From the NCBI GenBank assembly GCA_026387835.1, contig JAPLKZ010000007.1, positions 35,284 through 67,283 of the forward strand: DNA of 32,000 bases, read 5' to 3'. A program made the position numbers and the translations under genes. The notes under the pieces are model-generated. The model saw nothing but the letters and a program-made list of their open reading frames with translations, did no database searches and was not told the DNA's origin. This DNA comes from Candidatus Saganbacteria bacterium. Lineage in GTDB: Bacteria; Margulisbacteria; WOR-1; JAKLHX01. This document shows positions 5,700 to 28,609 of the stretch, piece by piece. How positions within the stretch are numbered: position 1 is the stretch's first letter; each line of letters opens with the position of its first letter.

Positions 5700-5723
5700 A
5701 ACCATTTACAAGCCCACAGTATA

Positions 5724-5753: not shown

Positions 5754-5759
5754 TAGACT

Positions 5760-6551: not shown

Positions 6552-6555
6552 AAAT

Positions 6556-10030: not shown

Positions 10031-10060
10031 ATTTGTTTCGATGAAATTAAGTGTCTTCTT

Positions 10061-12211: not shown

Positions 12212-12217
12212 ATAGGG

Positions 12218-12245
12218 ATTATAGCAAATATTCGTTGCTTGACAA
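12218..12245 (-). promoter_or_regulatory. candidate mtnA promoter (TTGTCA-16 nt-TGcTATAAT), ATG 6 nt downstream
   Basis: On the minus strand: TTGTCA (12240-12245), TG-c (12224-12226), TATAAT (12218-12223), ccctat, then ATG (12209-12211). No SD. Confidence 0.45.
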
Positions 12246-12266
12246 ATATAAAGGCGGTCATATAGG
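12239..12266 (+). promoter_or_regulatory. candidate promoter for the aldolase-ADH pair (TTGACA-16 nt-TATAGG)
   Basis: TTGACA at 12239-12244 overlaps the opposing -35 box. Weak -10 at 12261-12266. AGGAGG SD at 12276-12281, which would leave a very short leader. Confidence 0.3.
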
Positions 12267-12288
12267 ATTATTCCTAGGAGGGGAAAAT

Positions 12289-13068: not shown

Positions 13069-13083
13069 ATCAAAAACTAAACC

Positions 13084-14061: not shown

Positions 14062-14067
14062 TTAAGG

Positions 14068-14595
14068 TTAATCTCCTTCAAACTCTGTTTGCGAGTACAC
14101 AGAGTAACCGGCGTCTTCCAGCTTTTTTCTCCCACCCAGGTCAGGCAGATCGACTATAAAAGCAAGCTCGATCACATCTCCTCCAAGCTTTTTGACGAGT
14201 TTTGTGGCTGCGGTTGCCGTGCCTCCGGTGGCAAGAAGATCATCAATAATAAGGACCTTCATTCCTTTTGCTATAGCGTCTTTGTGGATCTCGATGGCAT
14301 CAGTTCCGTATTCAAGGCTGTATTCTTCTCTTTCGATTTCTGCCGGAAGCTTCCCCTTTTTTCTTATAGGGACAAAGCCTTTACCCAGAACAAAAGCGAG
14401 CGCACCCCCAATAATAAAACCCCTTGAATCGATCCCCGCGATCATATCAATATCTTTCTCTTTGTACCGGTTCATAAAATCGTCTATGCAGAGTTTTAGG
14501 CCTACGGGATCTTTGAGCAAAGTGGTAATATCACGGAACATGATCCCCTGTTTGGGCCAGTGCGGAACGGTCCTTATCCTTGATTTGATAGGCAT
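14068..14595 (-). CDS. apt: adenine phosphoribosyltransferase
   Basis: 175 aa. PRPP-binding motif [14 protein letters not shown]. The N-terminal FRDITTLL block is typical of Apt. Confidence 0.92.
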
Positions 14596-14597
14596 CT

Positions 14598-15323
14598 TTA
14601 TATCCTCCCTGCCACTTTGATCAGAAGTTTCTTCACTTTTTCGGCGTTATCCTTCATCCTTTGCATCACCATTTCATAAGTGACCGGTGCTTCATCGTCC
14701 TTCCAGCAGTCATAATCGGTAGACATCGCGATAGTCATGCCGAGCTCATTGGCAAGAATTACCTCGGGGCATGTAGACATGTTTATGATATCAGCGCCCC
14801 AGGCCCTGAACATATGGCTTTCAGACTTGGTTGAGAACCTCGGGCCTTCTATTGTGATAACGGTCACATCCTTGTTGTATGTGATACCCATCTCATCGCA
14901 TGTCTTGCATAATATGTCGGTCATGGCATTATCATACGGCTGGCTCATGGACGTGTGGACAACGCTGTCATGGAAATAGGTCAAGTTCCTATGCCTTGTA
15001 AAATCAATGAACTGTGACGGAAAAACCAAATTTCCGGGTTTGATCTCTGCCCTGAGGGATCCCACGGCGGTCACAGCCAGGATATGAGTGCATCTTTCTT
15101 CTTTAAGGGCGAACATATTAGCGAGAAAATTGATCTTAGTGGGGGAAATTGAATGGTTCTTTCCGTGCCTTGCAAGGATGACCACATCCGTCCCGTCTAT
15201 TTTTCCTGTTATAAGGGGAGAAGTGCAATGGCCAAACCTGTTGGATATCTTCTTTTCTTTTGGATTATCGAGGATATCCGGATTGTCCAGTCCCGAGCCG
15301 CCGATTATTGCTATTTTGGTCAT
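14598..15323 (-). CDS. mtnP: S-methyl-5'-thioadenosine phosphorylase
   Basis: [37 protein letters not shown]. These are MTAP-type PNP family blocks. AAGGAG SD. Confidence 0.85.
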
Positions 15324-15407: not shown

Positions 15408-15436
15408 TTGACAAAAGAGATTAAAAAAGATAGAAT
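15408..15436 (+). promoter_or_regulatory. candidate pse operon promoter (TTGACA-17 nt-TAGAAT)
   Basis: Consensus -35 TTGACA at 15408-15413, exact 17-nt spacer, -10 TAGAAT at 15431-15436. AAAGGAG SD at 15459-15465. ATG at 15475. Confidence 0.6.
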
Positions 15437-15451: not shown

Positions 15452-15474
15452 AGTCAGTAAAGGAGTTTAAAAAT

Positions 15475-16458
15475 ATGAGTATATTTGACGGAAAAACGAT
15501 CTTGATCACAGGAGGCACGGGGTCTTTTGGGAACAGATTTACTGAAATTATCTGCTCGGAGCATAAACCGGAAAAAGTCATTATTTTCAGCAGGGACGAG
15601 TTTAAGCAATATGAAATGCAAGAAAGGCTGAGCGGTGAAAAATATAAAGTGCTCAGATTTTTTATCGGGGATGTGAGGGACAAAGAACGGTTGAACAGAG
15701 CTATGAGCAATGTGGATTATGTGGTGCATGCCGCCGCTTTAAAACAAGTGCCGGCGATGGAATATAATCCGTCGGAGGCGATAAAAACCAATGTATTTGG
15801 GGCAATGAATATAATAGACTGCGCGATACAAAACAGGGTCCAGAAAGTAATCGCTTTGAGCACCGATAAAGCGTGCAACCCCATCAATCTTTACGGGGCC
15901 ACAAAACTTTGTTCAGACAAACTTTTTGTTGCGGGCAATCATTACACACAAGGAGATAAGCCCAGGTTTTCTGTTGTTAGATATGGAAATGTTGTCGGAA
16001 GCAGGGGAAGTGTTATTCCGTTTTTTATCGAGAAAAAGAAAACCGGCGTTCTTCCGATAACGGACGAGAAGATGACGAGGTTCTGGATCACGCTGGAGCA
16101 GGGGGCTAGATTTGTCATTAAGAGCTTTGAGAGGATGTTCGGAGGCGAGATATTTGTCCCGAAGATACCGAGCATGCACATCGTAGATCTGGCAAGAGCG
16201 ATAGCCCCGGAATGCAAGATCGAGATTATCGGCATACGCCCGGGCGAAAAATTGCATGAAGTCATGATCTCCGATGATGACGCAAGAAACACGGTTGAAA
16301 TTGATTTTTCATATATTATTCAACCCGCGTTCCACTGGTGGGGCAACAGCAACCATACAAACGCTAAGCCTGTTCCTGAAGGGTTTCGCTTCAGCAGCGA
16401 TACGAATACGCAGTGGGTCACGGTTGAGCAGCTGAAACAAATGATAAAAGAAAAATGA
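15475..16458 (+). CDS. pseB: UDP-N-acetylglucosamine 4,6-dehydratase (inverting)
   Basis: ILITGGTGSFG, FSRDEFKQ, FFIGDVRD, STDKA, YGATK. 327 aa. First gene of the operon. Confidence 0.9.
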   Translation: MSIFDGKTILITGGTGSFGNRFTEIICSEHKPEKVIIFSRDEFKQYEMQERLSGEKYKVLRFFIGDVRDKERLNRAMSNVDYVVHAAALKQVPAMEYNPSEAIKTNVFGAMNIIDCAIQNRVQKVIALSTDKACNPINLYGATKLCSDKLFVAGNHYTQGDKPRFSVVRYGNVVGSRGSVIPFFIEKKKTGVLPITDEKMTRFWITLEQGARFVIKSFERMFGGEIFVPKIPSMHIVDLARAIAPECKIEIIGIRPGEKLHEVMISDDDARNTVEIDFSYIIQPAFHWWGNSNHTNAKPVPEGFRFSSDTNTQWVTVEQLKQMIKEK

Positions 16459-17588
16459 AAATACCTTATGCGACGCAATGGATAGATGACGACGACATAG
16501 ATGCGGTCGTTAAAGCGTTAAAAACATCTCATCTGACCCAGGGGCCGGTCGTAAATGAGTTTGAAAAGCAAGTCGCTCTTTATTGCGGCGCAAAATATGC
16601 CGTTGCGGTGAATTCGGGCACCTCTGCGCTTCACGCGGCCTGCTTCGCGGCGGGTATCGGAAAAGGCGATGAAGTAATAACTTCCCCCATAACTTTCGTG
16701 GCTTCCGCCAATTGCGTGCTGTATTGCGGCGGAAAACCTGTTTTTGCCGACATCCAGGAAGACACAGTAAATGTCGATCCTCTTTCAATAGAAAAACATA
16801 TCGGTTCAAGGACAAAAGCGATTATCCCCGTGCATTTTGCGGGCCATCCGTGCGACATGAAAGAGATAAAGCGGATCGCGGATAAGAGCAGTTTGATGGT
16901 GATCGAGGATTGCTGCCACGCGCTCGGTGCGGAAAATGAAGGCTCAAAAATAGGTTCTTGCAAGCATAGCGATATGGCGGTGCTGAGTTTTCACGCGGTA
17001 AAGCATATAACCACAGGTGAAGGCGGCATGGTGCTGACAAACAATAAAGATATTTACGAAAAGCTTTTAATGTTCCGGACGCATGGGATAACGAGGCAGC
17101 AGGACAAACTGGAGCGGCCTGATGAAGGCCCCTGGTATTACGAAATGCAGATGCTCGGATTTAATTACAGGATCACCGATTTTCAATGCGCTCTCGGCAT
17201 CAGCCAGCTGAGCAAGCTTGAAATGTTCGTCAAGCGCAGAAGAGAGATCGTAAAGAAGTATAACGGCGCGTTTTCCGGGATAGACGGCCTGGTCATCCCT
17301 GTTGAGCGCGCCAATGTGAAAAGTGCGTGGCATTTATATGTTTTAAGATTGAAAAATGACAGGAAACTCATTTTTGACAGGTTAAAAAAGGCCGGCATCG
17401 GTGTCAACACGCATTATTTTCCTGTCTATCTCCAGCCGTATTATCAAAGCATCGGCTACTTAAGCGGTTTGTGCCCTAAGGCCGAAAACTATTATTCCCA
17501 GGCCATAACGCTGCCTCTTTTCCCGAAGATGAGCGATGAAGATGTTGAAACAGTGATAAAGGAAGTAAAAAAGGCAGTACAAAAATGA
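16455..17588 (+). CDS. pseC: UDP-4-amino-4,6-dideoxy-N-acetyl-beta-L-altrosamine transaminase
   Basis: IPYATQWIDDDD...LTQGP, NSGTSALH, SFHAVKHITTGEGG (PLP Lys). ATGA overlap with pseB. Confidence 0.9.
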   Translation: MKIPYATQWIDDDDIDAVVKALKTSHLTQGPVVNEFEKQVALYCGAKYAVAVNSGTSALHAACFAAGIGKGDEVITSPITFVASANCVLYCGGKPVFADIQEDTVNVDPLSIEKHIGSRTKAIIPVHFAGHPCDMKEIKRIADKSSLMVIEDCCHALGAENEGSKIGSCKHSDMAVLSFHAVKHITTGEGGMVLTNNKDIYEKLLMFRTHGITRQQDKLERPDEGPWYYEMQMLGFNYRITDFQCALGISQLSKLEMFVKRRREIVKKYNGAFSGIDGLVIPVERANVKSAWHLYVLRLKNDRKLIFDRLKKAGIGVNTHYFPVYLQPYYQSIGYLSGLCPKAENYYSQAITLPLFPKMSDEDVETVIKEVKKAVQK

Positions 17589-18466
17589 GCAAGATAGCCC
17601 TTGGAACAGCGCAATTCGGCCTCGACTACGGGATAAACAACAAAAGAGGGAAGATCCCGCAGGCAGAGATATTTGAAATACTGGACCTCGCATCACAAAA
17701 CGGGATCGATATGCTGGATACCGCCCCGGCTTACGGCGGCAGCCAGGAAATTATCGGAGAATATCAGGCCGCTCACGGCAGCAGATTCAATGTGGTCTCA
17801 AAGCTTTCCAAAGGGTCATTTCCGGATATACAAAAAGCGATCGATGGTATTTTGACGGAAATAAGAGCGAAAACATTGTACGGTTTGATATATCACAGTA
17901 TTGATGATTTTAAGGCAAATGAGGATAGCTGGAAAACACTCGAAGATAATAAGGCCAATGGCAGGATAAAAAAGATCGGTTTTTCACTTTATACCCCGCG
18001 TGAGCTTGAATATCTCTTTGAAAAGTCGGTAAGGTTTGATCTTGTGCAGGTGCCTTACAGCATTTTTGACCAGAGATTTAAAAAGTATTTTAAGGTGCTG
18101 AAAGAGAGAAATGTTGAGGTGCATGTAAGGTCCGTTTTCTTGCAGGGTTTGTTCTTTATGGATGCAAATAAGCTCGACCCATTTTTTCTCGGCATTAAAA
18201 ACGAGCTTGAGCATCTTCGCGAGATAACTGATGAGCTCAAAATATCTATGGTGGATCTTTGCCTCGGATTTGCTTTGATGAACAACAGTGCCGATATGGT
18301 GGTCGCGGGAGTAGACGGCATTAACAATTTAAGAGAGATAATATCCGCTTTAACAAACCTAGACGCAATAAAAAACATATACGAGAAACTTCTTGATCTG
18401 GAGATTGATGATGAAAAATTTCTGCTTCCGTTCAATTGGAAATTATGCGCTAAAGGGGCTATTTAA
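17585..18466 (+). CDS. aldo/keto reductase
   Basis: IALGTAQFGLDYG and LDTAPAYGGSQE are AKR N-terminal blocks. ATGA overlap with pseC. Confidence 0.85.
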   Translation: MSKIALGTAQFGLDYGINNKRGKIPQAEIFEILDLASQNGIDMLDTAPAYGGSQEIIGEYQAAHGSRFNVVSKLSKGSFPDIQKAIDGILTEIRAKTLYGLIYHSIDDFKANEDSWKTLEDNKANGRIKKIGFSLYTPRELEYLFEKSVRFDLVQVPYSIFDQRFKKYFKVLKERNVEVHVRSVFLQGLFFMDANKLDPFFLGIKNELEHLREITDELKISMVDLCLGFALMNNSADMVVAGVDGINNLREIISALTNLDAIKNIYEKLLDLEIDDEKFLLPFNWKLCAKGAI

Positions 18467-19239
18467 TGAATGTAGTTGCGATAATCCAAGCCAGGACAAG
18501 TTCGACAAGATTGCCTAATAAAGTTCTTCTTGATCTTGAAGGCAAGACAGTGCTTGAACGGGTAATTGAAAGGGTATCAGCCGCGAAGACCGTTGACAGA
18601 GTGGTCGTGGCGACCAGTATAGATAAAAGCGATGATGCGATAGAAGAGATTTGTAAAAAAGCCGGCATCGATTGTTACAGGGGATCTCTTGAAGATGTTC
18701 TTGACAGGTACTATCAGGCGGCAAAAAAGTATGGAGCCGATAGTATTGTCCGAATAACTGCCGATTGCCCTTTGATGGACCCGTCTATTATTGATTCGAC
18801 CGTAAGTAAATACATTAGCAGTGGAGCAGATTATATTTCCAACGCTTTAAAAGAGACATTCCCTGACGGAGAAGATGTCGAGATATTTACTTTTAAGGCA
18901 TTAGAGCGAGCGTGGAATGAATCAAAAAAAACTTCGGAACGTGAGCATGTGACACCTTATATCAGGAACAATACAAATATTTTCAAGATAGCGGGATTTG
19001 AGGCTGACAGGGATTTGTCGGAAAAAAGATGGACATTGGACAATGCGGAGGATTATGAGTTTTTGGTAAAAGTATATTCCCGCCTTTATAAAACGAATCC
19101 GCTCTTTGGATTGGAAGAGATATTAGAGTTATTAAAAAACGAACCCGATCTAAATAAGATAAATAGTCATATTGTCCGCAATGAAGGGTATGCGAGATCA
19201 TTGCGTGATGATAAATCAGTAAAAGAGGAGGATTTGTAA
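18466..19239 (+). CDS. SpsF-like cytidylyltransferase-fold protein (possible CMP-nonulosonate synthetase substitute)
   Basis: VAIIQARTSSTRLPNKVL is the SpsF-type N-terminal motif. 257 aa. No canonical PseF (IPARGGSK-type) is present elsewhere in the window. Confidence 0.7.
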   Translation: MNVVAIIQARTSSTRLPNKVLLDLEGKTVLERVIERVSAAKTVDRVVVATSIDKSDDAIEEICKKAGIDCYRGSLEDVLDRYYQAAKKYGADSIVRITADCPLMDPSIIDSTVSKYISSGADYISNALKETFPDGEDVEIFTFKALERAWNESKKTSEREHVTPYIRNNTNIFKIAGFEADRDLSEKRWTLDNAEDYEFLVKVYSRLYKTNPLFGLEEILELLKNEPDLNKINSHIVRNEGYARSLRDDKSVKEEDL

Positions 19240-20549
19240 TGGGAAAAGGACAAGAATTATACAAGAGGGCAAAACAAATAATTCCCGGAGGCACGCAATT
19301 GCTTTCTAAAAGGCCGGAAATGTTCTTGCCGGACCTATGGCCGGCTTATTATGATAAAGCAAAGGGCTGCGAGGTTTGGGACCTGGACGGGAATAAATAT
19401 ATTGATATGAGTTACATGGGAGTGGGGTCTTGTATTCTTGGATATGCTGATCCGGATGTTAATGCCGCTGTTGAAAAGGCCGTTAAAAACGGTTCAATGT
19501 GTACACTTAACGCGCCGGAAGAGGTGGAATTGGCCGATCTGCTCTTAAACCTTCATCCATGGGCGGAAATGGTGAGATATGCCCGCACAGGCGGAGAATC
19601 AATGAGTATTGCAGTCAGGATAGCAAGGGCGGCCACTAAAAAAGATATGATACTTTTTAGCGGATATCATGGTTGGCATGATTGGTATTTATCTTCAAAT
19701 CTGGCTGATGATAAATCCTTGGACGGCCATCTGTTGCCGGGGCTATCTCCGAATGGTGTTCCAAGAGGATTGTCGGGCACTGCAAAACCTTTTATTTATA
19801 ATGATACTGACGGATTCCTTTCCTTAATAGAAAAATTCCGAGGGAAAATCGCGGCTGTCGTTGTGGAAACAATAAGAAGCGATGATCCGAAACCGGAATT
19901 CCTTGAAACGATCAGAAAAGTAACAAAAGAAAATGGAATTGTGATGATCGTTGATGAGGTGAGTTCCGGATGGAGATTGAATGTGGGAGGCGCGCATCTT
20001 CTTTTTGGGATCGCGCCTGATATCGCGGTATTCGCTAAGGGGATCAGCAATGGATTTCCGATGGCTGCAATTATCGGGATTAAAAATATAATGCAAACGG
20101 CGCAGGACAGTTTTATAAGCAGTACTTATTGGACAGATAGGATTGGTCCCGCTGCAGCTCTGGCGACGATAAGAAAAATGAAAATACACGATGTGCCAGA
20201 TCACCTGATAACTGCCGGTAAAAAAGTAAAGGCGGGCTGGCAAGCATTGTCTTTAAAGCACGATTTAGATGTCAAGGTATCGGGAATGGATCCCATCGGG
20301 CATTTTGACTTTAATTACAAAGACCCCCTGATTTTAAAAACGCTGTTTACGCAATTAATGCTTGGCAAAGGGATTTTGGCAACAACAGCTTTTTATGCAT
20401 CTTATGCTCATAAAGATAAGCATGTTAAGTATTATTTAAATTCTGCGGATGAAGCCTTTGGCTTTATTAAAAAGGCCATATTAGAAGGCAATCCTCAAAA
20501 GTATTTAAAAGGCCCAATATGTCATTCTGGTTTTAAAAGGTTAACCTAG
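19239..20549 (+). CDS. class III PLP aminotransferase (glutamate-1-semialdehyde aminomutase-like)
   Basis: GYHGWHDW, VDEVSSGWR, FAKGISNG (PLP Lys). 436 aa. Confidence 0.85.
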   Translation: MGKGQELYKRAKQIIPGGTQLLSKRPEMFLPDLWPAYYDKAKGCEVWDLDGNKYIDMSYMGVGSCILGYADPDVNAAVEKAVKNGSMCTLNAPEEVELADLLLNLHPWAEMVRYARTGGESMSIAVRIARAATKKDMILFSGYHGWHDWYLSSNLADDKSLDGHLLPGLSPNGVPRGLSGTAKPFIYNDTDGFLSLIEKFRGKIAAVVVETIRSDDPKPEFLETIRKVTKENGIVMIVDEVSSGWRLNVGGAHLLFGIAPDIAVFAKGISNGFPMAAIIGIKNIMQTAQDSFISSTYWTDRIGPAAALATIRKMKIHDVPDHLITAGKKVKAGWQALSLKHDLDVKVSGMDPIGHFDFNYKDPLILKTLFTQLMLGKGILATTAFYASYAHKDKHVKYYLNSADEAFGFIKKAILEGNPQKYLKGPICHSGFKRLT

Positions 20550-21649
20550 TGGAAAATAATGTCATTATCAGGGTGGATTCTTCGCCAGAAATAGGAAGCG
20601 GCCATTTAATGCGGTGCTTGGCACTGGCGGATAAATTGCATGAGAAAGGTATGCAAGTCTCATTTATATGCCGTGAACTGCGGGGGAATATATGTCAACT
20701 GATCGATGAGAAAAAACATAAATTATTTCATTTGCCATATTATGGTAAAGGGGCTGAAGGTGATGATAAGTCCGGATATTTAAATTGGCTGGGTGTGTCT
20801 TTTCAAAAAGATGCAGATGAGACAGTCAAAGTCATAAATAACAAATTAGGGAGTGTTGAATTGTTGATCGCCGATCATTATGCTTTAAATGAAGAATGGG
20901 AAAAATCAATACGTCCGTATGTTAAAAAAATAATGGTTATCGATGACCTGGAAGACCGTAAACACGATTGTGATATTCTGTTGGATTGCAACTATAATAC
21001 TCCCGATAAAGAGAGATATGTTAACTTAATACCCAAATATTGCAAGCTGCTTTTAGGCCCTAAATATGCCTTACTCAGGAATGAATTTATAGAAGCAAGA
21101 AGACAATTAAAGGAAAGAACCGGAAGAGTAGACCGGATTTTAGTTTATTATGGCGGGGCCGATCTTACCAATGAAACGAAAAAAACAATTAATGGCCTTA
21201 TACAATTAAATCGTCCGGAAATTGAAATAAATGTGATCATCGGGGCTTTAAATAAGAATAAAATAAATATTGAGAAAATGTGTTCCGCTCTCCCTAATGC
21301 GAAATGTTATTCGCATATAAATAATATGGCCCAAATAATGATGTCGGCGGACCTGTTTATCGGTGCGGCAGGGATCACAACCTGGGAAAGGTGTTGTTTG
21401 GGCTTACCATCGATCGTGATAACTGTGGCAAATAACCAAGTAAAAATTATCGAAAATATGGCAAAAGATGATTGCCTGTATCTATTGGGAGAAAATTATA
21501 AAGTAAATGATAAGGATATTTGTGCGGCAGTTAAATATATGATCGATCATCCGGAGGTGTTGAAGAGTTATTCTTTAAACTCGATTGATCTTGTGGACGG
21601 AACGGGGGCCGAGAGGTGCGCTGATTTGATAAACAGCATTAATAATTGA
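20549..21649 (+). CDS. pseG: UDP-2,4-diacetamido-2,4,6-trideoxy-beta-L-altropyranose hydrolase
   Basis: IRVDSSPEIGSGHLMRCLALADKL and GAAGITTWERCCLGLPS. GTG start shares one nt with the preceding TAG. Confidence 0.85.
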   Translation: MENNVIIRVDSSPEIGSGHLMRCLALADKLHEKGMQVSFICRELRGNICQLIDEKKHKLFHLPYYGKGAEGDDKSGYLNWLGVSFQKDADETVKVINNKLGSVELLIADHYALNEEWEKSIRPYVKKIMVIDDLEDRKHDCDILLDCNYNTPDKERYVNLIPKYCKLLLGPKYALLRNEFIEARRQLKERTGRVDRILVYYGGADLTNETKKTINGLIQLNRPEIEINVIIGALNKNKINIEKMCSALPNAKCYSHINNMAQIMMSADLFIGAAGITTWERCCLGLPSIVITVANNQVKIIENMAKDDCLYLLGENYKVNDKDICAAVKYMIDHPEVLKSYSLNSIDLVDGTGAERCADLINSINN

Positions 21650-21662
21650 AAGGACAATATCA

Positions 21663-22550
21663 ATGGGAAAAGAAAAATATAAGATAATAAAAGATCCAAA
21701 ACATGATTATTTGCGAATAGATCCAATCCCCACCCAGCAAGAAGTTGAGCGGTATTATAAGGAAGAATTCTACTCGTCAGCATACAAACAATTTAACGAT
21801 TCTTCCCTTAAGGTGCAAAAAGAGGAACAAGAGTTCTTTAAAAGTCGATGGGAAAGCATTTGCAATATATGTATGAATATCTACGGCGGGCTGGAAGGGT
21901 TGTCTTTATTTGACATCGGTTTCGGATATGCCCAGGCGCTTTTATATTTCAGGGAAAAAGGCATGAAAGTCAGTGGTTTAGAGCCTTCACCTGAAGGTGT
22001 AGAATATGCAAAATCTCAGGGGTTGGATGTGTTTCAGTCTGGAATTGAGGATTTTTCCTGTGTAGGATCGAGACGCTATGACATTGTTACGCTAATCAAT
22101 GTCCTGGAACATCTTCGCGATCCGGCAGATGTTTTAATGAACATAAAAAAACAACTATTAAAACCCAACGGATTATTGGTCTTAGATGTGCCCAATGAGT
22201 TTAATGACTTTCAGACAGCAGCCAATGAGGAATATTCGCTCGATGAATGGTGGGTCTGTCCGCCAAACCATATTAATTATTTTTCCGGAAATTCATTGAG
22301 TAAACTGTTGAATGATTGTGGATATGAAATAAAAAGCAAGGAGGCATCTTTTCCTTTAGAGATATTTCTGCTAATGGGAGATATTTATGTCGGGAATAAT
22401 GAACTTGGCGGAATATGTCACAATAAGCGTGTTAAGTTCGAATATCTTATGAAAAAGCACGGTAAAGGCCAAAAATTAACCAAATTTTATCAGGCTTTGG
22501 CTGACCTTGATCTCGGAAGACAAACAGTGGTTTATGCGACCCCGAAATAG
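21663..22550 (+). CDS. class I SAM-dependent methyltransferase
   Basis: LFDIGFGYAQ (motif I-like), LINVLEHLRDP, KPNGLLVLDVPN. 295 aa. Confidence 0.8.
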   Translation: MGKEKYKIIKDPKHDYLRIDPIPTQQEVERYYKEEFYSSAYKQFNDSSLKVQKEEQEFFKSRWESICNICMNIYGGLEGLSLFDIGFGYAQALLYFREKGMKVSGLEPSPEGVEYAKSQGLDVFQSGIEDFSCVGSRRYDIVTLINVLEHLRDPADVLMNIKKQLLKPNGLLVLDVPNEFNDFQTAANEEYSLDEWWVCPPNHINYFSGNSLSKLLNDCGYEIKSKEASFPLEIFLLMGDIYVGNNELGGICHNKRVKFEYLMKKHGKGQKLTKFYQALADLDLGRQTVVYATPK

Positions 22551-22570
22551 AAATTAGAGGAGGGATATTT

Positions 22571-23638
22571 ATGGAGTTTGTTGATCTTAGCCGATATTTG
22601 CCAGTTAAGGGAGAGGAAATATTGCCATTCAGTGAGCTGCGCAAAATGAAGCCGGTATGGCTTACGTCAGATCTTCAGATCGTAGATGAGCCTGAAAATA
22701 TGACTTATGCTAAGTATTTAGCAGAAAAGGGGATCGCGGTTACGGCCATAAGAAAACGACCTCCCTTTTCAAAGTATATAGACAGGACCTCTTTCCCGAG
22801 GCGGATACTATTTGAGATGACCAGCAGATGCAATTTTGAATGTCGGATGTGTCCCCAGCAAAACCTAAAGCGGCCTCGTATGGATATGCCGGGTGAGCTT
22901 TACAGAAAAGTTGTTGATGAAATAGATAAATATGGTGTCGAAGGTCTCTGGTTGTATCATTTAGGGGAATCTCTTTTGCATCCGGAATTTCGCGATAATC
23001 TTAAGCATATCAGCACAAAGAAGAATCTCGGGGTGATCTGGATGAGCACTAATGGACAATATTTTAATGAAGATAATATTCGATGTGTTCTTGCGTCAAA
23101 TATTGATTATATCAATTTTTCCGCGCACGCTGTAACAAAAGAAACATATAAAACCGTGGCTTCTCAAGGAGATTTTGATGTTGTTCAGGGCAATTTGGAA
23201 AATTTTTATTCAATTAAAGGAACGGACAATCTCCCTCGAAAACCATATTTACATTGCCAGATGATAGAACAGGAGACAACTAAACATGAGATCGATGCTT
23301 TTATTGCCAAGCATTATAAGCGCGCGGAAGTTGTAAGCATAAACATGCTTGAGTATGTCAATCTCCCGAATAATGCTTATGGTTTAAAGCAAAGAGAGCG
23401 CAAACCGTTGACTTCTTGCATGCGCATATCCAGAAATGATTGTTTTATATGTTCAAATGGCCACGTAACGCTTTGTGACGCGGCTTATAATGGCGAAATA
23501 TTTCTTGGGGACGTTAATAAACAGGCTCTTTATGATATTTGGAATGGCCAGGAACGCAAGAAAATACTGGAGCTTAACAAACAAGGACGAATGAGAGAAA
23601 TTGAAATATGTTCAAAATGTACGGACTACGATATTTAA
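22571..23638 (+). CDS. radical SAM enzyme with a C-terminal SPASM/twitch-like Cys cluster
   Basis: CNFECRMC = C87-x3-C91-x2-C94 (nt 22829-22852), preceded by an ~85-aa N-terminal extension. C-terminal Cys pattern CMRISRNDCFICSNGHVTLC ... CSKC. GAGGAGG SD. Confidence 0.85.
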   Translation: MEFVDLSRYLPVKGEEILPFSELRKMKPVWLTSDLQIVDEPENMTYAKYLAEKGIAVTAIRKRPPFSKYIDRTSFPRRILFEMTSRCNFECRMCPQQNLKRPRMDMPGELYRKVVDEIDKYGVEGLWLYHLGESLLHPEFRDNLKHISTKKNLGVIWMSTNGQYFNEDNIRCVLASNIDYINFSAHAVTKETYKTVASQGDFDVVQGNLENFYSIKGTDNLPRKPYLHCQMIEQETTKHEIDAFIAKHYKRAEVVSINMLEYVNLPNNAYGLKQRERKPLTSCMRISRNDCFICSNGHVTLCDAAYNGEIFLGDVNKQALYDIWNGQERKKILELNKQGRMREIEICSKCTDYDI

Positions 23639-23641
23639 GCC

Positions 23642-24151
23642 ATGAGAGAACATGCGAACATTTCTTTAAATGAATTTACCGGTGATCACATAAACCAGGC
23701 CTATGAATGGGTGAAAAACCCCGGGTTCAAACATTTATTTTTATTGAGGGGAGAGATTACCTTCGAAGGGAACCAGCGTTATTTCGAGAAAGTTATGTCG
23801 GATCCTTGTCAAAAAGTATACGCCATTTACTATAACGGGAAACATATCGGTAATTGCGGAATTAAAGATATATCGCTAAAAAACAAGGAAGCAGAGATCT
23901 GGATTTATATCGGGGACCCTTCATTGCGGGGGAAAGGCGTCGGATCGCAGGCCACTAAAAAACTGCTAATAGAAGCAGCTAAAAAATTCGGTATAGAAAA
24001 GACATATTTGCATGTCGCAGAATATAATACCGCCGCAATTAAAATGTACAAAAATCTTGGATTTAAAGAGGTCCCATTAAGAAAAATGGAAGGTGAATGG
24101 TCAGGCCGCGGTTGTGAAATAATATATATGGAGTTAAAAAATATTTTATGA
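23642..24151 (+). CDS. pseH: GNAT N-acetyltransferase, PseH-like
   Basis: 169-aa GNAT fold with the acetyl-CoA loop RGKGVGSQATKKLL. The size and the position among pse genes fit PseH, but the assignment is contextual. Confidence 0.6.
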   Translation: MREHANISLNEFTGDHINQAYEWVKNPGFKHLFLLRGEITFEGNQRYFEKVMSDPCQKVYAIYYNGKHIGNCGIKDISLKNKEAEIWIYIGDPSLRGKGVGSQATKKLLIEAAKKFGIEKTYLHVAEYNTAAIKMYKNLGFKEVPLRKMEGEWSGRGCEIIYMELKNIL

Positions 24152-24918
24152 ATGTAGCCATGATGCAGCCGACATTTTTACCCTGGACAGGATATTTTGA
24201 GCTGATCAGCAAAGCGGAAAAATTCATCATCCTGGACGATTTTCAGTTTTCAGTCCAAAGCTATCATCAGCGCACGCGTCTTTTCATTGACAAGGCAAGG
24301 ATTGCCTGGTATACAGTCCCGGTCAGGAAGGATATCTCATTTGGGAAGCCGCTCAACGTTACCAGAATAAACGAGGATCTTCCTTGGCGGAAGAAAATGG
24401 CGAGGTGCATCGAGCAGAATTACGGCAAGGCCCCTTATTTTAAAGAATTATATCCTCAAGTCAGTGAATGGTTATTAAAACCGGCAGATTCACTTTCTGC
24501 GCAGAATGTCGCTTTTATTAAATTGGCTTGTGAAATTCTTGGTTGGCAAAAAGAGATTATCTACAGCTCGCAATATCCTTCGACGTTAAAAAGATCCGCT
24601 AGAGTGTTAGATCTGTTGCGCCGGGCCGGGGCTAAACGTTATCTCTGCGCGAGGGGCGCATTTGAATACATGAAAGCCGAAGGGCTCTTTCCTGTCAACG
24701 ACATTGAGGTTGTTTTTCAAAATCACCATCCCCAGCCATATCCGCAGGTCGGTTCGCCGGCAGAATTCGTTCCTTATTTGTCAATCCTGGACGCTCTTTT
24801 TAATGTTGATCCGGCACGTGCGGCCGAACTTGCAAATACAGGAACAACCAAATGGCTGACATGGCAGGAGATGGCCAAGGCGGCCGGTGAACAAAAGGAG
24901 AATCTCGATGAAAATTAA
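24148..24918 (+). CDS. WbqC-like family protein (function unknown)
   Basis: MQPTFLPWTGYFELISKAEKFIILDDFQFS...YHQRTRL matches the WbqC-family N-terminal consensus as I remember it. Confidence 0.72.
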   Translation: MNVAMMQPTFLPWTGYFELISKAEKFIILDDFQFSVQSYHQRTRLFIDKARIAWYTVPVRKDISFGKPLNVTRINEDLPWRKKMARCIEQNYGKAPYFKELYPQVSEWLLKPADSLSAQNVAFIKLACEILGWQKEIIYSSQYPSTLKRSARVLDLLRRAGAKRYLCARGAFEYMKAEGLFPVNDIEVVFQNHHPQPYPQVGSPAEFVPYLSILDALFNVDPARAAELANTGTTKWLTWQEMAKAAGEQKENLDEN

Positions 24919-25957
24919 GATAGGGAAGAGATCGGTCGGGGAAGGCTGCGAGCCGCTCATTGTTGCTGAGATGTCTGGTAATCATAACCGCTCACTCAAG
25001 CGGGCGCTGGCGATAGTTGACGCGGCTGCTAAGGCCGGAGTTCATGCTTTAAAAATCCAAACATATACTGCCGATACGATGACGCTCGATCTGAATTGCG
25101 GAGAATTTTTCATCAAGGACAAAAAAAGCCTCTGGAAAGGAAAATCTCTTTATGAACTTTATAAGCGGGCCGCAACCCCCTGGGAGTGGCATAAGGTGAT
25201 CTTTGACCGATGCAGGGAACATGGGATCATCGGTTTTAGCACGCCATTCGACGCGACCGCTGTCGATTTTTTGGAAAAATTGAATGTTCCCTGCTATAAG
25301 ATCGCTTCCTGTGAACTGGTGGATATTCCGCTGATCAAGAAGGCGGCATCGACCGGTAAACCGCTGTTAATGTCGACCGGCATGGCGACACGTCGGGAGA
25401 TAGCCGAAGCGATCGGCGCGGCCAGAAAGGCAGGCTGCCGTAAATTGGTCCTGCTTAAATGTACCAGTTCTTATCCGGCTGATCCAAAGGATTCAAATCT
25501 AGAGACCATTTATGATATGAAAAAAAGATTTGGATGTGAGGTCGGTTTATCAGATCATACATTAGGGATCGGGGTATCTTTAGCAAGTATTGCATTGGGA
25601 GCGGCAGTTATAGAAAAACATTTTACATTATCAAGAAAAGATGGCGGGGTTGATTCGGTTTTTTCTATGGAGCCCGATGAGATGCGGATGTTAGTTGAGG
25701 AAGCAAGTATAGCGTGGCGATCCTTGGGGAAGATATCTTACGAGCTATCCAGTAAGGAAAAAAAATCGCTTGTATTTAGGCGATCATTATATGCCATAAA
25801 AGATATTAAAAAGGGAGAAACTATTACAAAAGATAATGTCAGGTCTATAAGACCCGGGTTAGGGCTTCCGCCGAAATACATTGATGACATTATTGGCAGG
25901 AAAATTAACAGAAACATCACTAAGGGGACGCCGATGAGATGGGACATTATGAAATAG
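24908..25957 (+). CDS. pseI: pseudaminic acid synthase (NeuB family)
   Basis: LIVAEMSGNHN, ALKIQTY, LSDHTLG, C-terminal SAF-like GETITKDNVRSIRPG. ATG 24908 behind AAGGAG is preferred over the track start 24887. Confidence 0.92.
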   Translation: MKIKIGKRSVGEGCEPLIVAEMSGNHNRSLKRALAIVDAAAKAGVHALKIQTYTADTMTLDLNCGEFFIKDKKSLWKGKSLYELYKRAATPWEWHKVIFDRCREHGIIGFSTPFDATAVDFLEKLNVPCYKIASCELVDIPLIKKAASTGKPLLMSTGMATRREIAEAIGAARKAGCRKLVLLKCTSSYPADPKDSNLETIYDMKKRFGCEVGLSDHTLGIGVSLASIALGAAVIEKHFTLSRKDGGVDSVFSMEPDEMRMLVEEASIAWRSLGKISYELSSKEKKSLVFRRSLYAIKDIKKGETITKDNVRSIRPGLGLPPKYIDDIIGRKINRNITKGTPMRWDIMK

Positions 25958-25958
25958 A

Positions 25959-27080
25959 ATGTTGCATGAAATAATTCAATTAACGGAAGACAATCATCCT
26001 CTTTGGGGTGAACTGTGCCAAAAATCAAATGATGCCTGGTTCTGGCATACGACAGAGTGGATGAATTATTGTATTTCTTATGGTTTTGAGAAGCACAGGT
26101 CTAAAAACCTCAGTTTTATAATGATCGATGATTCTGGTCCCATAGCCATTTGCCCATTAGTATTGGAAAGTCACGCAGGGCCTGACGGCAAGGAAAGACA
26201 AGAGTTCTCTATTTCCGGAAGCGGAGGATATTTAGAAATGCCGGCAGTCAGGAGCAACTTAACCAAAGGGCATACGGACAAAATTATGGATGAAATACTT
26301 GAAACGATCGATCAGATGGCTGTTCGTCATCAAGTGTCCAGGGTGTCATTCAGATCTGCTCCATTGGCTCAACAAAGATATAATATCAATTCATTTGAAA
26401 AATTCGGATATCTTGACTGTTCACTAAGCACACATGTGATCGACCTTAAACTTTCGTTAGCCGAGATCTGGAGCGACGTCAGGAAAGGGCATAAGTATGA
26501 TATACATCGCGGAGAAAAAAATTTCATTATCCATATTTATGACAAGGATAATGCGGATAAATCGATTTTTGATCAATACAGGCTTCTTCACCACAAAGCT
26601 TCAGGCCGGGTGACCCGCCCAATAGAAACTTTTGAAATGATGTATGACTGGATCGTGCGTGGGCTGGGCATGTTGTGTGGTGTATGTCGGAACGGACAAT
26701 ACGCAGGTTTTTCATATATAAGCCTGTATAAAGATTCTGCTTATTATACCTCAGCAAGTGATGACCCTGATTTTCAGACAGATGTGCCCATCTCCCATGT
26801 CATACAATGGTCGGTTATCAAATGGTTGAAAGAAAAGGGATTTCAAACCTACGAGATAGGCGGGCAGCATTACGGGCCACATATTTATGATCTGCCTTCA
26901 GCAAAGGATGGCAGCATTGCTTTTTTCAAACGCGGATTTGGCGGAAAACAGCTTCCGTTGTACCGCGTAGAAAAATATTTTGATCGTGATTATATGAGGT
27001 TATCATATGAACTCAAGATAAAAGCTTTGCAGGAAAAAGCCTCAAAAGAAATGATCAAAGAAGGAGCCACCCCCGGATGA
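25959..27080 (+). CDS. FemAB-family / Acetyltransf_6-like GNAT-fold acyl(aminoacyl)transferase
   Basis: 373 aa. The blocks VRKGHKYDIHRGEK and AFFKRGFGG resemble the FemX/FemA conserved blocks. An N-terminal second GNAT-like half is present. Confidence 0.62.
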   Translation: MLHEIIQLTEDNHPLWGELCQKSNDAWFWHTTEWMNYCISYGFEKHRSKNLSFIMIDDSGPIAICPLVLESHAGPDGKERQEFSISGSGGYLEMPAVRSNLTKGHTDKIMDEILETIDQMAVRHQVSRVSFRSAPLAQQRYNINSFEKFGYLDCSLSTHVIDLKLSLAEIWSDVRKGHKYDIHRGEKNFIIHIYDKDNADKSIFDQYRLLHHKASGRVTRPIETFEMMYDWIVRGLGMLCGVCRNGQYAGFSYISLYKDSAYYTSASDDPDFQTDVPISHVIQWSVIKWLKEKGFQTYEIGGQHYGPHIYDLPSAKDGSIAFFKRGFGGKQLPLYRVEKYFDRDYMRLSYELKIKALQEKASKEMIKEGATPG

Positions 27081-28609
27081 TCCTAAAGAATATCAAAGCA
27101 GTTTTTCTTTCTAATATTTTGATCCAGATTATCGGCTTTATCGCTTCATTTATTATAAAACGATTTATAGAGCCCTCTCTCATGGGTGTATGGAACCTGG
27201 TCAATATCGTTGTTAGATATATCCTGATGTTGAATTCGGGCGTTGGGTCGGCAGCCCAGAGGGAGATCCCTTACTTGGCCGGCAGGAATGACAAAGATGC
27301 GGAGGAAAAAACGAAGCAGACTTTTTTTGCCGTCATAGTTATTGAGCTTTTTGCCGCCACGGTGCTGTTTTACTGCTTCTTCTTTTTTAAGCGCGACATA
27401 TTTCAGTCCAATCTTTGGTACCTTTTTTTGGCGGCGCCGTTCTATGCTTTTACAACCCGGATCTATGATGCGTTTGTGACAGTTTTTCAGGCACACCAGG
27501 AATTTGTGAAATTAAGCAAGCTAAATGTTCTCTTTTCTGTAGTAAATATTGTCCTTTCCGTGGCGGGCGCACTGTTTTTCGGGATCACGGGCCTTTTTGT
27601 GGGGATCGGCATATTCTATTTGTATAGAATTTATAAAATATGGGCACTTTCAAAACAAAGCGAAATAAAAATAAGCATTAAATTTCACTGGGATACTTTT
27701 GTGAATCTAATAAAGATAGGATTTCCACTTGAAACCGGCTCTTATTTTTATGGGCTCTTTATTACTATTGACAGCCTGCTTGTTGCCAAATGGCTTGGGG
27801 TCACTTCGCTTGCCTTTTATTCCATGGGATTAGCAATTTCAAGACAGATGGGAGATTTTCCCACGCAAGTAAATACTATTATCTTTCCAAGGATCATGAA
27901 AAAGTTTGGACAAAACCACAATCTTCGGGAGATATCAAAGGACGTTTATGTGTTTTTTATCGGTAATCTGCTTATCATAATCCCTTTTCTTGTTCTGTTT
28001 GTCGTATTCGTGGGCCCGTGGCTCGTCAGGCTTTTTATCAGAAATTACATAGAAAGCATTCCTTCTCTTGTCATCCTGGCATTTTCAATGTTCTTTATCC
28101 CACAGATACACTTGCCGTTTAATATATTCCTGTTAAAAAAGCAAATGATAAAAGTGGTCGGGTATACTGCGCTGAACTTCATAATACTTCTTACGTCGAT
28201 TTTTCTCATTAACTTCCAATCACCAAGCCTAATGATGATAGCTGTATCTGTCTTGATCGGTCAGTTTATATGTTTTATTGTTGTATTTTGGGATTCCATG
28301 ACAGATGTGTTGACATTAAAAGAAAAAATAATAGTATTGCTCTTCCTACAGGCGGCATTTTGGTCATGCCTGATCATCATGCTGGTCCTTGAAAGGATAT
28401 TTCCGTCATCCATGTCCAGGGGCGCAGACACGATCAATATGTTGATAAAAACAACGCTCTCTTTCATTATTTGCGTGCCTATAGCCGTCTGGGCACTTGC
28501 CTTTACAGGAACATGGGACAAGGTAAAGGACGAAATATATTCGACGCTAATTAATTTCAGGACAAGGTTCGGATTTACTGCTGTCGATTCAAACACAGAG
28601 GCCGAATGA
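27077..28609 (+). CDS. wzx: Wzx-like oligosaccharide flippase (MOP superfamily)
   Basis: 510 aa, polytopic (12 or more hydrophobic segments by eye). Typical position in a glycan locus. ATGA overlaps at both ends. Confidence 0.75.
   Translation: MILKNIKAVFLSNILIQIIGFIASFIIKRFIEPSLMGVWNLVNIVVRYILMLNSGVGSAAQREIPYLAGRNDKDAEEKTKQTFFAVIVIELFAATVLFYCFFFFKRDIFQSNLWYLFLAAPFYAFTTRIYDAFVTVFQAHQEFVKLSKLNVLFSVVNIVLSVAGALFFGITGLFVGIGIFYLYRIYKIWALSKQSEIKISIKFHWDTFVNLIKIGFPLETGSYFYGLFITIDSLLVAKWLGVTSLAFYSMGLAISRQMGDFPTQVNTIIFPRIMKKFGQNHNLREISKDVYVFFIGNLLIIIPFLVLFVVFVGPWLVRLFIRNYIESIPSLVILAFSMFFIPQIHLPFNIFLLKKQMIKVVGYTALNFIILLTSIFLINFQSPSLMMIAVSVLIGQFICFIVVFWDSMTDVLTLKEKIIVLLFLQAAFWSCLIIMLVLERIFPSSMSRGADTINMLIKTTLSFIICVPIAVWALAFTGTWDKVKDEIYSTLINFRTRFGFTAVDSNTEAE

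Follow-up and report, generated by a model that had tools for sequence, protein, structure and literature searches.

The window analyzed here, a 32,000-nucleotide stretch of a Candidatus Saganbacteria genome, carries a run of 12 open reading frames between positions 15475 and 27080, all on the plus strand (Table 1). Annotation of the reading frames with Pfam and NCBIfam profiles returned the same 12 gene identities given in the original prediction, with genes of pseudaminic acid (Pse) synthesis interleaved with genes of other enzyme families.

Table 1 Features of the nonulosonic acid locus (bit scores are followed by the model cutoff where given)
Feature	Position	Strand	Match or remark
Promoter-like site, TTGACA-17 nt-TAGAAT	15408..15436	+	11/12 consensus positions; consensus match only
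PseB, UDP-GlcNAc 4,6-dehydratase (inverting)	15475..16458	+	TIGR03589, 521 bits (cutoff 408); PF02719
PseC, DegT-type aminotransferase	16455..17588	+	TIGR03588, 526 bits (cutoff 423)
Aldo/keto reductase (AKR)	17585..18466	+	PF00248, 110 bits
SpsF-type cytidylyltransferase, probable CMP-nonulosonate synthetase	18466..19239	+	PF02348, 136 bits
Class-III PLP aminotransferase, glutamate-1-semialdehyde-aminomutase-like	19239..20549	+	PF00202, 153 bits
PseG, UDP-sugar hydrolase	20549..21649	+	TIGR03590, 315 bits (cutoff 154)
SAM-dependent methyltransferase (Methyltransf_23)	21663..22550	+	PF13489
BtrN-like radical SAM enzyme, one auxiliary-cluster (twitch/SPASM) domain	22571..23638	+	PF04055 + PF13186
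PseH-like GNAT N-acyltransferase	23642..24151	+	Best family TIGR03585 (PseH), 63 bits, below cutoff (93)
WbqC-family protein	24148..24918	+	PF08889, 193 bits
PseI, pseudaminic acid synthase	24908..25957	+	TIGR03586, 501 bits (cutoff 340)
FemAB-like transferase, variable accessory gene	25959..27080	+	PF13480, 28.5 bits (cutoff 22); TIGR04421, 98 bits, below cutoff (250)
Wzx-like polysaccharide flippase	27077..28609	+	PF13440 + PF01943
568-aa protein, possible glycosyltransferase	28609..30315	+	Start overlaps flippase gene end
Putative nonulosonate transferase, first 565 codons of 652 aa	30305..32000	+	Frame open to window end

Neighboring genes overlap at 16455-16458, 17585-17588, 18466, 19239, 20549, 24148-24151, 27077-27080, and 28606-28609, and also at 24908-24918 if PseI begins at the ATG at 24908, a start taken from gene calls on identical contigs. 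The remaining gaps between cassette genes are 13, 20, 3, and 1 nt. Given the shared strand, the overlaps, and the short gaps, the proposal of a single translationally coupled unit is a reasonable reading. However, that unit does not end at 27080, because the operon runs on into the flippase gene, two putative glycosyltransferase genes, and at least ten more genes outside the window. The predicted promoter was the joint-best match between positions 14500 and 32000. As shuffled sequence contains at least as many promoter-like matches overall (47.6, against 46 in the real sequence), the argument for this site is its position rather than statistics: it lies within the 151-nt gap that separates divergent genes, the only sizeable intergenic gap. 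A ribosome-binding site, AAGGAG, is found at 15461-15466, 8 nt before the pseB ATG. Other samples have yielded independent assemblies that match the DNA from 15475 to 30315 at 100% identity, and thus the locus is not an assembly artifact. Genes encoding Wza, Wzc, and Wzx flank the operon, which we take, with slightly more confidence than doubt, to be one long operon in a surface-polysaccharide locus.

A neighborhood search found 11 of the 12 genes (those encoding PseB, PseC, the AKR, the cytidylyltransferase, the class-III aminotransferase, PseG, the methyltransferase, the radical SAM/SPASM enzyme, the GNAT, WbqC, and PseI) together in about 15 other lineages spanning many phyla and at least one archaeon. 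The 11 genes share one strand in Ca. Methanoperedens, Rhodocyclaceae, Syntrophaceae, Geobacteraceae, Omnitrophota, Verrucomicrobia, Elusimicrobia, Desulfarculia, Desulfonema magnum, a Desulfovibrio sp., and Acetobacterium, where the copy sits in a flagellin-glycosylation island. Only the FemAB-like gene varies between loci. The genome scan was pattern-limited and gave 20 loci. Among 15 loci with long flanks, the methyltransferase, WbqC, and PseI genes were each present in all 15 and the aminotransferase gene in 12. The combination had been described as unfamiliar from known pathways. We likewise found no characterized locus with this gene set and no characterized product for any of its carriers, but the combination is not peculiar to this genome. 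Since the set is fixed across many lineages, it probably makes a widespread modified sugar.

Six functions (PseB, PseC, PseH, PseG, PseI, and PseF) suffice for synthesis of CMP-Pse5Ac7Ac. The locus resembles the Campylobacter jejuni and Helicobacter pylori pathway in having PseB, PseC, PseG, and PseI, all four above the cutoffs of their equivalog models, plus a PseH-like GNAT. It differs in that the GNAT falls under the PseH cutoff, five conserved extra genes are interleaved with the core, and an SpsF-type cytidylyltransferase is found in place of the PseF type. With the SpsF-type enzyme replacing PseF, these proteins would probably provide a complete route to CMP-pseudaminic acid.

The cytidylyltransferase scored only 28 bits on the PseF model (cutoff 206), and it matched PDB entry 6oew (E = 5e-48). 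It is the sole cytidylyltransferase detected in loci L011, L013, and L017, the first of which is the Acetobacterium flagellin/Maf island, and Bacillus subtilis SpsF is genetically required for legionaminic acid transfer (PMC7439481). For these reasons it is most likely a functional PseF equivalent rather than an extra, and the five core plus seven extra functions of the original prediction become six plus six. A Clostridium PseF has also been predicted via SpsF homology (PMC13317340). The B. subtilis sps pathway (SpsM, C, D, G, E, and F) shares with the present locus the SpsF-type enzyme and a PseG-like hydrolase acting on UDP-linked precursors, and its sugar, as is probable here, goes to a surface layer rather than to flagellin (PMC7439481). 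In contrast, it makes legionaminic acid rather than a Pse-type sugar and has no AKR, class-III aminotransferase, radical SAM enzyme, methyltransferase, or WbqC.

The AKR, class-III aminotransferase, and SpsF-like enzyme might instead build a separate CMP- or CDP-activated block (an amino-alcohol or another acid), with a canonical PseF encoded elsewhere activating plain Pse. The low PseF score would fit such a scheme, as would fusion of the cytidylyltransferase to the class-III aminotransferase in three lineages (L010, L014, and L033) and the finding that L033 and, going by annotation, Legionella have the same trio but no radical SAM gene with it. We consider it unlikely, because several loci that need a CMP-sugar, the Maf-type island among them, have this cytidylyltransferase as the only one detected, because SpsF is tied genetically to nonulosonate transfer, and because the trio always lies within the PseB to PseI interval.

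With the cytidylyltransferase assigned to the core, the five conserved extras are the AKR, the class-III aminotransferase, the methyltransferase, the BtrN-like radical SAM enzyme, and WbqC, to which the FemAB-like protein is added in this genome. The extras look like sugar-tailoring enzymes, and their conservation with the core favors the earlier proposal that they tailor the sugar, although the cytidylyltransferase is no longer one of them. As all six sufficient functions are present, the product could be plain Pse5Ac7Ac, with the extras modifying the completed polymer or having substrates of some unrelated kind. This seems highly improbable given that about 15 lineages keep the five genes interspersed among those of the core, that two of the five have fused with partners from the core pathway (the aminotransferase as above, and WbqC to the GNAT in L031), and that an exported polymer is an unlikely substrate for soluble PLP, AKR, and radical SAM enzymes. 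Both fusions suggest functional coupling.

The AKR catalytic tetrad (D45, Y50, K73, and H104) is invariant in nine cassette orthologs. The protein may be an NAD(P)-dependent sugar oxidoreductase that either makes a ketone for the aminotransferase or reduces one. In L033 the AKR is replaced by a Gfo/Idh/MocA oxidoreductase, a swap that fits classic dehydrogenase plus aminotransferase logic. In the class-III aminotransferase, K267 and D239 are invariant in 14 orthologs, and the sugar C-6' aminotransferases GenB are among its relatives in the PDB; it may put a further amino group on the sugar. Assignment of this protein as HemL was rejected, as it scored only 202 on the HemL equivalog (cutoff 527).

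Seven cysteines of the radical SAM enzyme (C87, C91, and C94 plus C283, C302, C347, and C350) are invariant. BtrN was the only PDB match of the family profile (E = 1e-14), the four C-terminal cysteines fall within the stretch aligned to the BtrN C-terminal domain, and BtrN (4m7t) was the top Foldseek match of the AF2 model (pLDDT 87). In butirosin biosynthesis BtrN, which has a single four-Cys auxiliary cluster, oxidizes a secondary alcohol of an aminocyclitol to the ketone, which is then transaminated. The window enzyme shares this cluster layout, but the likeness is remote (about 18% identity in the fold alignment). It has an extra family-specific N-terminal domain of about 75 residues, its predicted substrate is a nine-carbon acid sugar, and its partner aminotransferase is of class III rather than the DegT type. 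Note that radical SAM chemistry is not deducible from the fold; the enzyme may carry out a BtrN-type reaction. Our literature search found no paper connecting radical SAM enzymes with nonulosonic acids.

The radical SAM protein is 50-89% identical between cassette-bearing phyla, and the methyltransferase gene (44-71% identity) adjoins its gene in most loci. No cassette genes were found near a Binatia ortholog (68% identity). In two loci of the Desulfocapsa type, genes for the radical SAM enzyme, the methyltransferase, and WbqC occur without those for the AKR or aminotransferase. Hence, the radical SAM enzyme cannot serve solely to feed the aminotransferase, and the tailoring set divides into two sub-modules. 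Retention of the radical SAM gene in loci lacking the aminotransferase, together with the intact AKR tetrad, would also suit a scheme in which these two enzymes alter only stereochemistry, by oxidation and re-reduction or by NeoN-like radical epimerization, to give a new 5,7-diacylamido nonulosonic acid stereoisomer with no new substituents. Radical SAM sugar epimerases such as NeoN and AviX12 do exist. We regard this scheme as quite unlikely: it leaves no role for the adjacent methyltransferase, the aminotransferase, or WbqC, and the closest solved relative of the radical SAM enzyme is a dehydrogenase rather than an epimerase.

Acylation could involve three proteins. WbqC may be a partner of the GNAT in N-acylation; its AF2 model (pLDDT 90) gave no significant PDB fold match, and there was no PDB sequence match. 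Four FemAB-like homologs carry a fused domain of the tRNA-binding GatB/YqeY family, and others are encoded in nonulosonate loci alongside the class-III aminotransferase. The window protein belongs to the same broad acyltransferase family (PF13480) as the aminoacyl-tRNA-dependent FemAB/FemX transferases of peptidoglycan synthesis. However, it scores below the cutoff of TIGR04421, the nearest curated family, and its gene is in a nonulosonate rather than a cell-wall locus. The acceptor would be a sugar amine, which the protein may aminoacylate using aminoacyl-tRNA.

Downstream of the flippase gene, the 568-residue protein had no Pfam, NCBIfam, or PDB match. The full 652-residue protein (L007) weakly matched TIGR04326 (56 bits) and the BFO_1060 family (31 bits), both below cutoff; BFO_1060 relatives are Tannerella transferases of Pse/Leg derivatives (PMC5420450). 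Beyond the window lie genes for an HpcH/HpaI aldolase, a 2-hydroxyacid dehydrogenase, several methyltransferases, and a KdsB-like cytidylyltransferase, and the aldolase and KdsB-like genes also occur beside the cassette in L012, L020, and L022. These genes bring to mind the Treponema denticola flagellin glycan, 2-methoxy-4,5,6-trihydroxyhexanoyl-Pse (PMC13439194). The whole locus might make a similar sugar, Pse N-acylated with a methoxy-polyhydroxy-acyl group that the pyruvate aldolase, dehydrogenase, and methyltransferases would build and WbqC or the FemAB-like protein would attach. One half of the TIGR04321 model (spiro-SPASM protein) is SpsF-like and the other is of the radical SAM/SPASM type, and the two window proteins weakly match the respective halves, but at 35 and 57 bits they are far under the cutoff of 250. 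Moreover, the downstream block is missing from most cassette loci, and the KdsB-like enzyme points rather to synthesis of a second CMP-ulosonic acid. We therefore hold a T. denticola-like product to be very doubtful.

The interpretation that we favor, with slightly more confidence than doubt, is that one operon encodes a CMP-pseudaminic acid route, the conserved five-enzyme tailoring set, and the FemAB-like protein. The sugar made is likely to be a pseudaminic acid derivative that bears one more amino group, a methyl group, and N-acyl groups of an unusual kind, its exact chemistry being conjectural. A new nonulosonic acid derivative, as originally proposed, is still a prediction, strengthened by the conservation of the cassette. 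Tailoring would occur at about the stage of cytidylylation. The AKR acting as a dehydrogenase, the radical SAM enzyme acting like BtrN, or both would oxidize one secondary alcohol of the nine-carbon sugar to a ketone, from which the class-III aminotransferase would generate a third amino group. The methyltransferase, the constant partner of the radical SAM enzyme, could place a methyl group on nitrogen, on oxygen, or on the carbon beside the ketone. Acylation of the amino groups would fall to the GNAT-WbqC pair, here together with the FemAB-like protein using aminoacyl-tRNA; the two large proteins encoded downstream would then use the CMP-sugar and the Wzx-like protein would flip the glycan. 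Weighing against this interpretation are the Desulfocapsa-type loci, the remoteness of the BtrN likeness, the Binatia ortholog, the lack of PDB matches for WbqC, and the GNAT score below the PseH cutoff. A further point against it is that PseG, a class-III aminotransferase, a cytidylyltransferase, and an aryl-alcohol dehydrogenase are all listed for a serogroup 6/12 LPS locus of Legionella pneumophila (PMC3694923). To our knowledge, there is no report of a triamino sugar in Legionella.

Precedent for modification at the CMP stage by pathway-embedded genes, including a methyltransferase, is found in Campylobacter, where PtmG and PtmH act in late-stage tailoring of CMP-legionaminic acid, and in CMP-level deacetylation and formylation in Ca. 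Kuenenia (bioRxiv 10.64898/2026.04.20.719630), although those systems use other families (amidotransferase, deacetylase, and formyltransferase) and have no radical SAM enzyme or extra aminotransferase. Magnetospirillum gryphiswaldense, which is not among the 20 loci of the pattern-limited scan, provides only a lead. Two reports (PMC8157484; bioRxiv 10.64898/2026.04.20.719630) describe orphan higher-carbon, three-nitrogen CMP-ulosonic acids from this organism with masses of 679.198, 693.214, and 707.230, for which we found no gene assignment in their text. By our own arithmetic, the masses given there exceed that of CMP-Pse5Ac7Ac by C2H3N, C3H5N, and C4H7N, that is, by one extra nitrogen plus zero to two further CH2 units, increments that would be expected from an extra aminotransferase and an acetyltransferase together with methylation.

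The same 11 genes recur on one strand in about 15 other lineages, as found by neighbourhood search, so that the idea of a one-off mixture of genes is no longer tenable. Homologues of the radical SAM enzyme (59-89% identity) were found in over 100 sequence clusters, and these span widely different organisms. Their contexts were read together with 20 loci from a pattern-limited genome scan, and the encoded proteins were scored against those of the window. The recurrent genes encode PseB, PseC, an aldo/keto reductase (AKR), a cytidylyltransferase, a class-III aminotransferase, PseG, a methyltransferase, the radical SAM enzyme, a PseH-like N-acyltransferase (GNAT), WbqC, and PseI. Carriers include the archaeon Ca. 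Methanoperedens, Rhodocyclaceae, Syntrophaceae, Geobacteraceae, Omnitrophota, Verrucomicrobia, Elusimicrobia, Desulfarculia, Desulfonema magnum, an oral Desulfovibrio isolate, and Acetobacterium, the cassette of which adjoins genes for flagellin and a Maf glycosyltransferase. Of the 15 loci having long flanks, all 15 have the methyltransferase, WbqC, and PseI, 14 have PseG, 13 the GNAT, 12 the aminotransferase, and 11 each the AKR and the cytidylyltransferase. The FemAB-like gene of the window was seen in only one other of these 15 loci. Two Desulfocapsa-type loci have neither the AKR nor the aminotransferase and retain the rest, and thus the extra genes divide into one sub-module of AKR and aminotransferase and another of methyltransferase, radical SAM enzyme, and WbqC. 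The cassette is a widespread and tightly conserved extension of the pseudaminic acid (Pse) pathway, the product of which is uncharacterised.

The core enzymes were assigned using profile models. PseB (TIGR03589, 521 bits versus a cut-off of 408), PseC (TIGR03588, 526 versus 423), PseG (TIGR03590, 315 versus 154), and PseI (TIGR03586, 501 versus 340) all pass the NCBI curated equivalog models. The top family of the GNAT is TIGR03585 (PseH), although its score of 63.1 bits falls below the cut-off of 93.1. The cytidylyltransferase belongs to the CTP_transf_3 family. The PseF model TIGR03584 (cut-off 205.7 bits) gave only 28 bits with this protein and 37 bits with a KdsB-like protein encoded downstream. 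In several loci, including a Maf-type island, the window-type enzyme is the sole cytidylyltransferase detected. The related B. subtilis SpsF is needed for the transfer of legionaminic acid but not for making it (PMC7439481), and in a 2026 study of Clostridium the PseF assignment was made through homology to SpsF (PMC13317340). As these loci require a CMP-sugar, the SpsF-type enzyme, judged by sequence and by these precedents, probably supplies the PseF function. With this assignment six canonical functions are present and six extra genes are left; the original prediction counted seven extras, all of which are real genes, but had placed the SpsF-like enzyme among them.

The AKR is a member of its superfamily (PF00248, 110 bits) and the Asp-Tyr-Lys-His tetrad (D45, Y50, K73, and H104) is invariant in nine orthologues. 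The methyltransferase belongs to Methyltransf_23. The class-III aminotransferase is a PLP enzyme (PF00202) in which the PLP lysine and the aspartate are kept in all orthologues, and its solved relatives include sugar C-6' aminotransferases. Identification of this protein as HemL was rejected, given scores of 202 versus 527 bits (TIGR00713) and 256 versus 486 bits (NF004856). The cytidylyltransferase and aminotransferase are fused in Desulfonema, in a Syntrophaceae MAG, and in another locus (L033), and the GNAT and WbqC are fused in the Desulfovibrio isolate, indicating that the fused partners are functionally linked. In L033 a Gfo/Idh/MocA oxidoreductase occupies the AKR position, a swap that fits a dehydrogenase and aminotransferase pair converting OH to NH2 near the cytidylylation step.

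In the radical SAM enzyme C87, C91, and C94 of a CxxxCxxC cluster and C283, C302, C347, and C350 of a four-cysteine auxiliary cluster are invariant in 15 orthologues, an arrangement of the BtrN type. When the family profile was searched against the whole PDB, BtrN was the sole match (E 1e-14). The match extends over both core and C-terminal domain, and the stretch aligned to the BtrN C-terminal domain includes the four auxiliary cysteines. The predicted model (pLDDT 87) gave BtrN as the top fold match (Foldseek E 2.4e-10, target-normalised TM 0.70), followed by SuiB and then by the sugar-modifying DesII. BtrN oxidizes a secondary alcohol to a ketone, which is then transaminated. An N-terminal domain of about 75 residues is common to the orthologues and absent from more distant relatives. 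The spiro-SPASM model TIGR04321, in which SpsF-like and radical SAM/SPASM parts form one polypeptide (cut-off 250), gave 34.7 and 57.2 bits, and here the two parts are separate genes, four genes apart. The enzyme could instead be a RiPP peptide maturase placed here by chance, a reading that we rejected given that its gene is syntenic with sugar genes in about 15 lineages, to which a Binatia MAG is the exception. Around the orthologue of that MAG (68% identity) the 6 kb upstream and the 10 kb downstream are free of nonulosonate genes, and its neighbours include another radical SAM/SPASM protein and a HATPase/STAS-like protein. For the window enzyme a BtrN-like two-electron oxidation of alcohol to ketone would be the best available analogy. 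In a distant relative (P0503, 455 aa) a GNAT domain is joined to a radical SAM/SPASM domain that shares 29% identity with the window enzyme, a further pairing of an acyltransferase with a radical SAM protein.

WbqC scored 193 bits with PF08889 (gathering threshold 21.3), and searches of the PDB with its sequence and its predicted model (pLDDT 90) gave no sequence or fold relative. The FemAB-like protein passed PF13480 (28.5 versus 22 bits) and scored 98.4 bits with the TIGR04421 FemAB_IMCC1989 model, below its cut-off of 250. Homologues, of which 148 were found, are placed in nonulosonate loci with a class-III aminotransferase, and four of the homologues have a fused GatB/YqeY domain (PF02637), a member of a tRNA-binding domain family. 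This fusion indirectly supports an aminoacyl-tRNA as the putative donor of the FemAB-like enzyme. A strain polymorphism was rejected as the explanation of the shorter, 339-aa FemAB-like gene call of some assemblies, the DNA being identical and only the choice of start codon differing. A PDB sequence search gave no useful match for the FemAB-like protein, the AKR, or the 568- and 652-aa proteins encoded downstream.

Coordinates of the features discussed (window numbering unless a locus is named)
Feature	Coordinates	Remarks
RmlA-, RmlB-, and RmlC-like, two Wza-like, two Wzz/Wzc-like, and DegT aminotransferase genes		Upstream of operon
First export set, Wza-like	3005-3982	
First export set, full Wzc-like tyrosine-kinase protein	4002-5699	
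Second export set, Wza-like	5760-6551	
Second export set, Wzz/GNVR protein	6556-7452	No kinase domain
119-aa ORF	7456-7815	Matches only C-terminal half of EamA transporter domain
Metabolic gene block	10004-15323	FAD oxidoreductase, MtnA-like isomerase (IF-2B family), DeoC-type aldolase, zinc alcohol dehydrogenase, phosphoribosyltransferase, purine nucleoside phosphorylase
Promoter-like site	15408-15436	TTGACA-17-TAGAAT
Twelve operon genes	15475-27080	+ strand
FemAB-like gene	25959-27080	Variable accessory
Segment identical in assemblies of other samples	15475-30315	14.8 kb
Second sugar-acid module, same contig	L007:13665-21707	About 2-10 kb past window end
Desulfonema magnum >1500-aa protein	L010:16798-21068	Directly after WbqC
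Binatia radical SAM orthologue	L025:6348-7436	
Syntrophaceae accessory genes	L032:11083-15288	

Profile-HMM annotation of the ORFs bore out the identities first proposed for the 12 genes, and the ORF coordinates agree with the start/stop overlaps and give gaps of 1-20 nt. The proposed promoter site also held up, being the joint-best match of the region and lying in the sole real intergenic gap; an AAGGAG site precedes the ATG of the first operon gene. The window proteins are 100% identical to those of a Candidatus Saganbacteria MAG. The unit had been thought to end at 27080, but the + strand run of genes that starts at 15475 is unbroken to the window end. It continues with a Wzx-like flippase, a 568-aa protein without a family, and a 652-aa protein, the gene of which extends past the window end, and therefore the sugar is most likely destined for a Wzx-dependent surface glycan. 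The 568- and 652-aa proteins are not paralogues of one another. The latter has weak similarity to TIGR04326 and to the BFO_1060 family, members of which are genetically defined transferases of Pse/Leg derivatives in Tannerella (PMC5420450).

At least 10 further genes lie on the source contig (L007) beyond the window, and these include a second sugar-acid module. The module encodes four methyltransferases (three large and one small, two of them with N-terminal CxxC...CxxC motifs), a KdsB-subfamily cytidylyltransferase (313 bits versus a cut-off of 255), an HpcH/HpaI pyruvate aldolase, a 2-hydroxyacid dehydrogenase, a hexapeptide acetyltransferase, an SDR, and a HAD hydrolase. Three other loci (L012, L020, and L022) likewise have the aldolase and KdsB-like genes next to the cassette. 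A possible product of the module is a second CMP-activated 3-deoxy-2-ulosonic acid or, alternatively, a methoxy-polyhydroxy-acyl group.

The prediction of a tailoring set is partly supported: the identities, conservation, and fusions of the extras are observations, whereas their exact chemistry is what we infer. In the most likely route, the order, positions, and donors of which are our proposal, PseB, PseC, the GNAT, PseG, PseI, and the SpsF-type enzyme would give CMP-Pse5Ac7Ac or a close analogue. A secondary alcohol would be oxidized by the AKR and/or the radical SAM enzyme, the ketone would be transaminated to a third amine, and the methyltransferase would add a methyl group. The GNAT and WbqC, and here also the FemAB-like enzyme, would acylate the amines, after which the two large downstream proteins would transfer the sugar and the Wzx-like protein would flip the glycan.

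Flagella, capsules, LPS, and S-layers bear nonulosonic acids, which influence recognition by phages and by the immune system of the host. The known routes to these sugars use six enzymes and a small number of simple tailoring steps. A fixed set of five extra enzymes kept from Saganbacteria and Desulfobacterota to an archaeon, with 50-89% identity for its radical SAM member, thus implies a common, still undescribed sugar and new enzymology: a role for the WbqC family, radical SAM chemistry with a sialic-acid-like sugar as the substrate and, perhaps, sugar aminoacylation by a FemAB-like enzyme. Two carriers are in culture, Desulfonema magnum 4be13 and Desulfovibrio sp. OH1186_COT-070, and allow a direct test of the prediction. 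In the literature we found no paper linking radical SAM enzymes with nonulosonic acids and none on WbqC with pseudaminic acid, and papers on Geobacillus, Leptospira, Clostridium, and Accumulibacter give no function for the extras.

Assignment of the product might also give genes to orphan mass-spectrometry signals. The flagellin of Treponema denticola bears Pse with a 2-methoxy-4,5,6-trihydroxyhexanoyl group as the acyl substituent (PMC13439194), and an acyl skeleton of this kind could in principle be made by the aldolase, dehydrogenase, and methyltransferases encoded downstream. Magnetospirillum gryphiswaldense has CMP-ulosonic acids with a 'C10' marker fragment (PMC8157484; bioRxiv 10.64898/2026.04.20.719630), the masses of which, by our own arithmetic, equal CMP-Pse5Ac7Ac plus C2H3N, C3H5N, and C4H7N. 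This bacterium was absent from the 20 loci of the pattern-limited genome scan. The orphan sugars of both organisms may relate to the cassette, that of Magnetospirillum as a lead only. A bolder reading, which we regard as improbable, is that the cassette is the first radical-SAM-dependent nonulosonic acid branch, making a Pse-derived sugar that has gained both a methyl carbon and a third amino group, possibly by way of an 8-keto intermediate, methylation of the neighbouring carbon, and then transamination. Such a sugar could then account for the three-nitrogen 'ten-carbon' CMP-ulosonic acids seen by mass spectrometry in Magnetospirillum and Methanococcus, which are as yet unexplained.

Some loci have additional genes. 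The >1500-aa protein of Desulfonema magnum has methyltransferase, radical SAM/SPASM, and glycoside-hydrolase-like or cyclase-like regions, and the cassette of this organism also contains a B12-binding radical SAM gene. In a Syntrophaceae locus (L032) an ATP-grasp gene is followed by a FemAB-like gene and then by LIC12162-family, PLP_IMCC1989-family, and B12-radical-SAM genes, apparently another accessory set that recurs in nonulosonate loci.

No tRNA genes or Rfam families were found in the window. The metabolic block upstream of the operon is unrelated to the two sugar regions that it separates. Upstream of this block two export sets occur in succession (3005-7452), and the 119-aa ORF that follows them is possibly a gene remnant.
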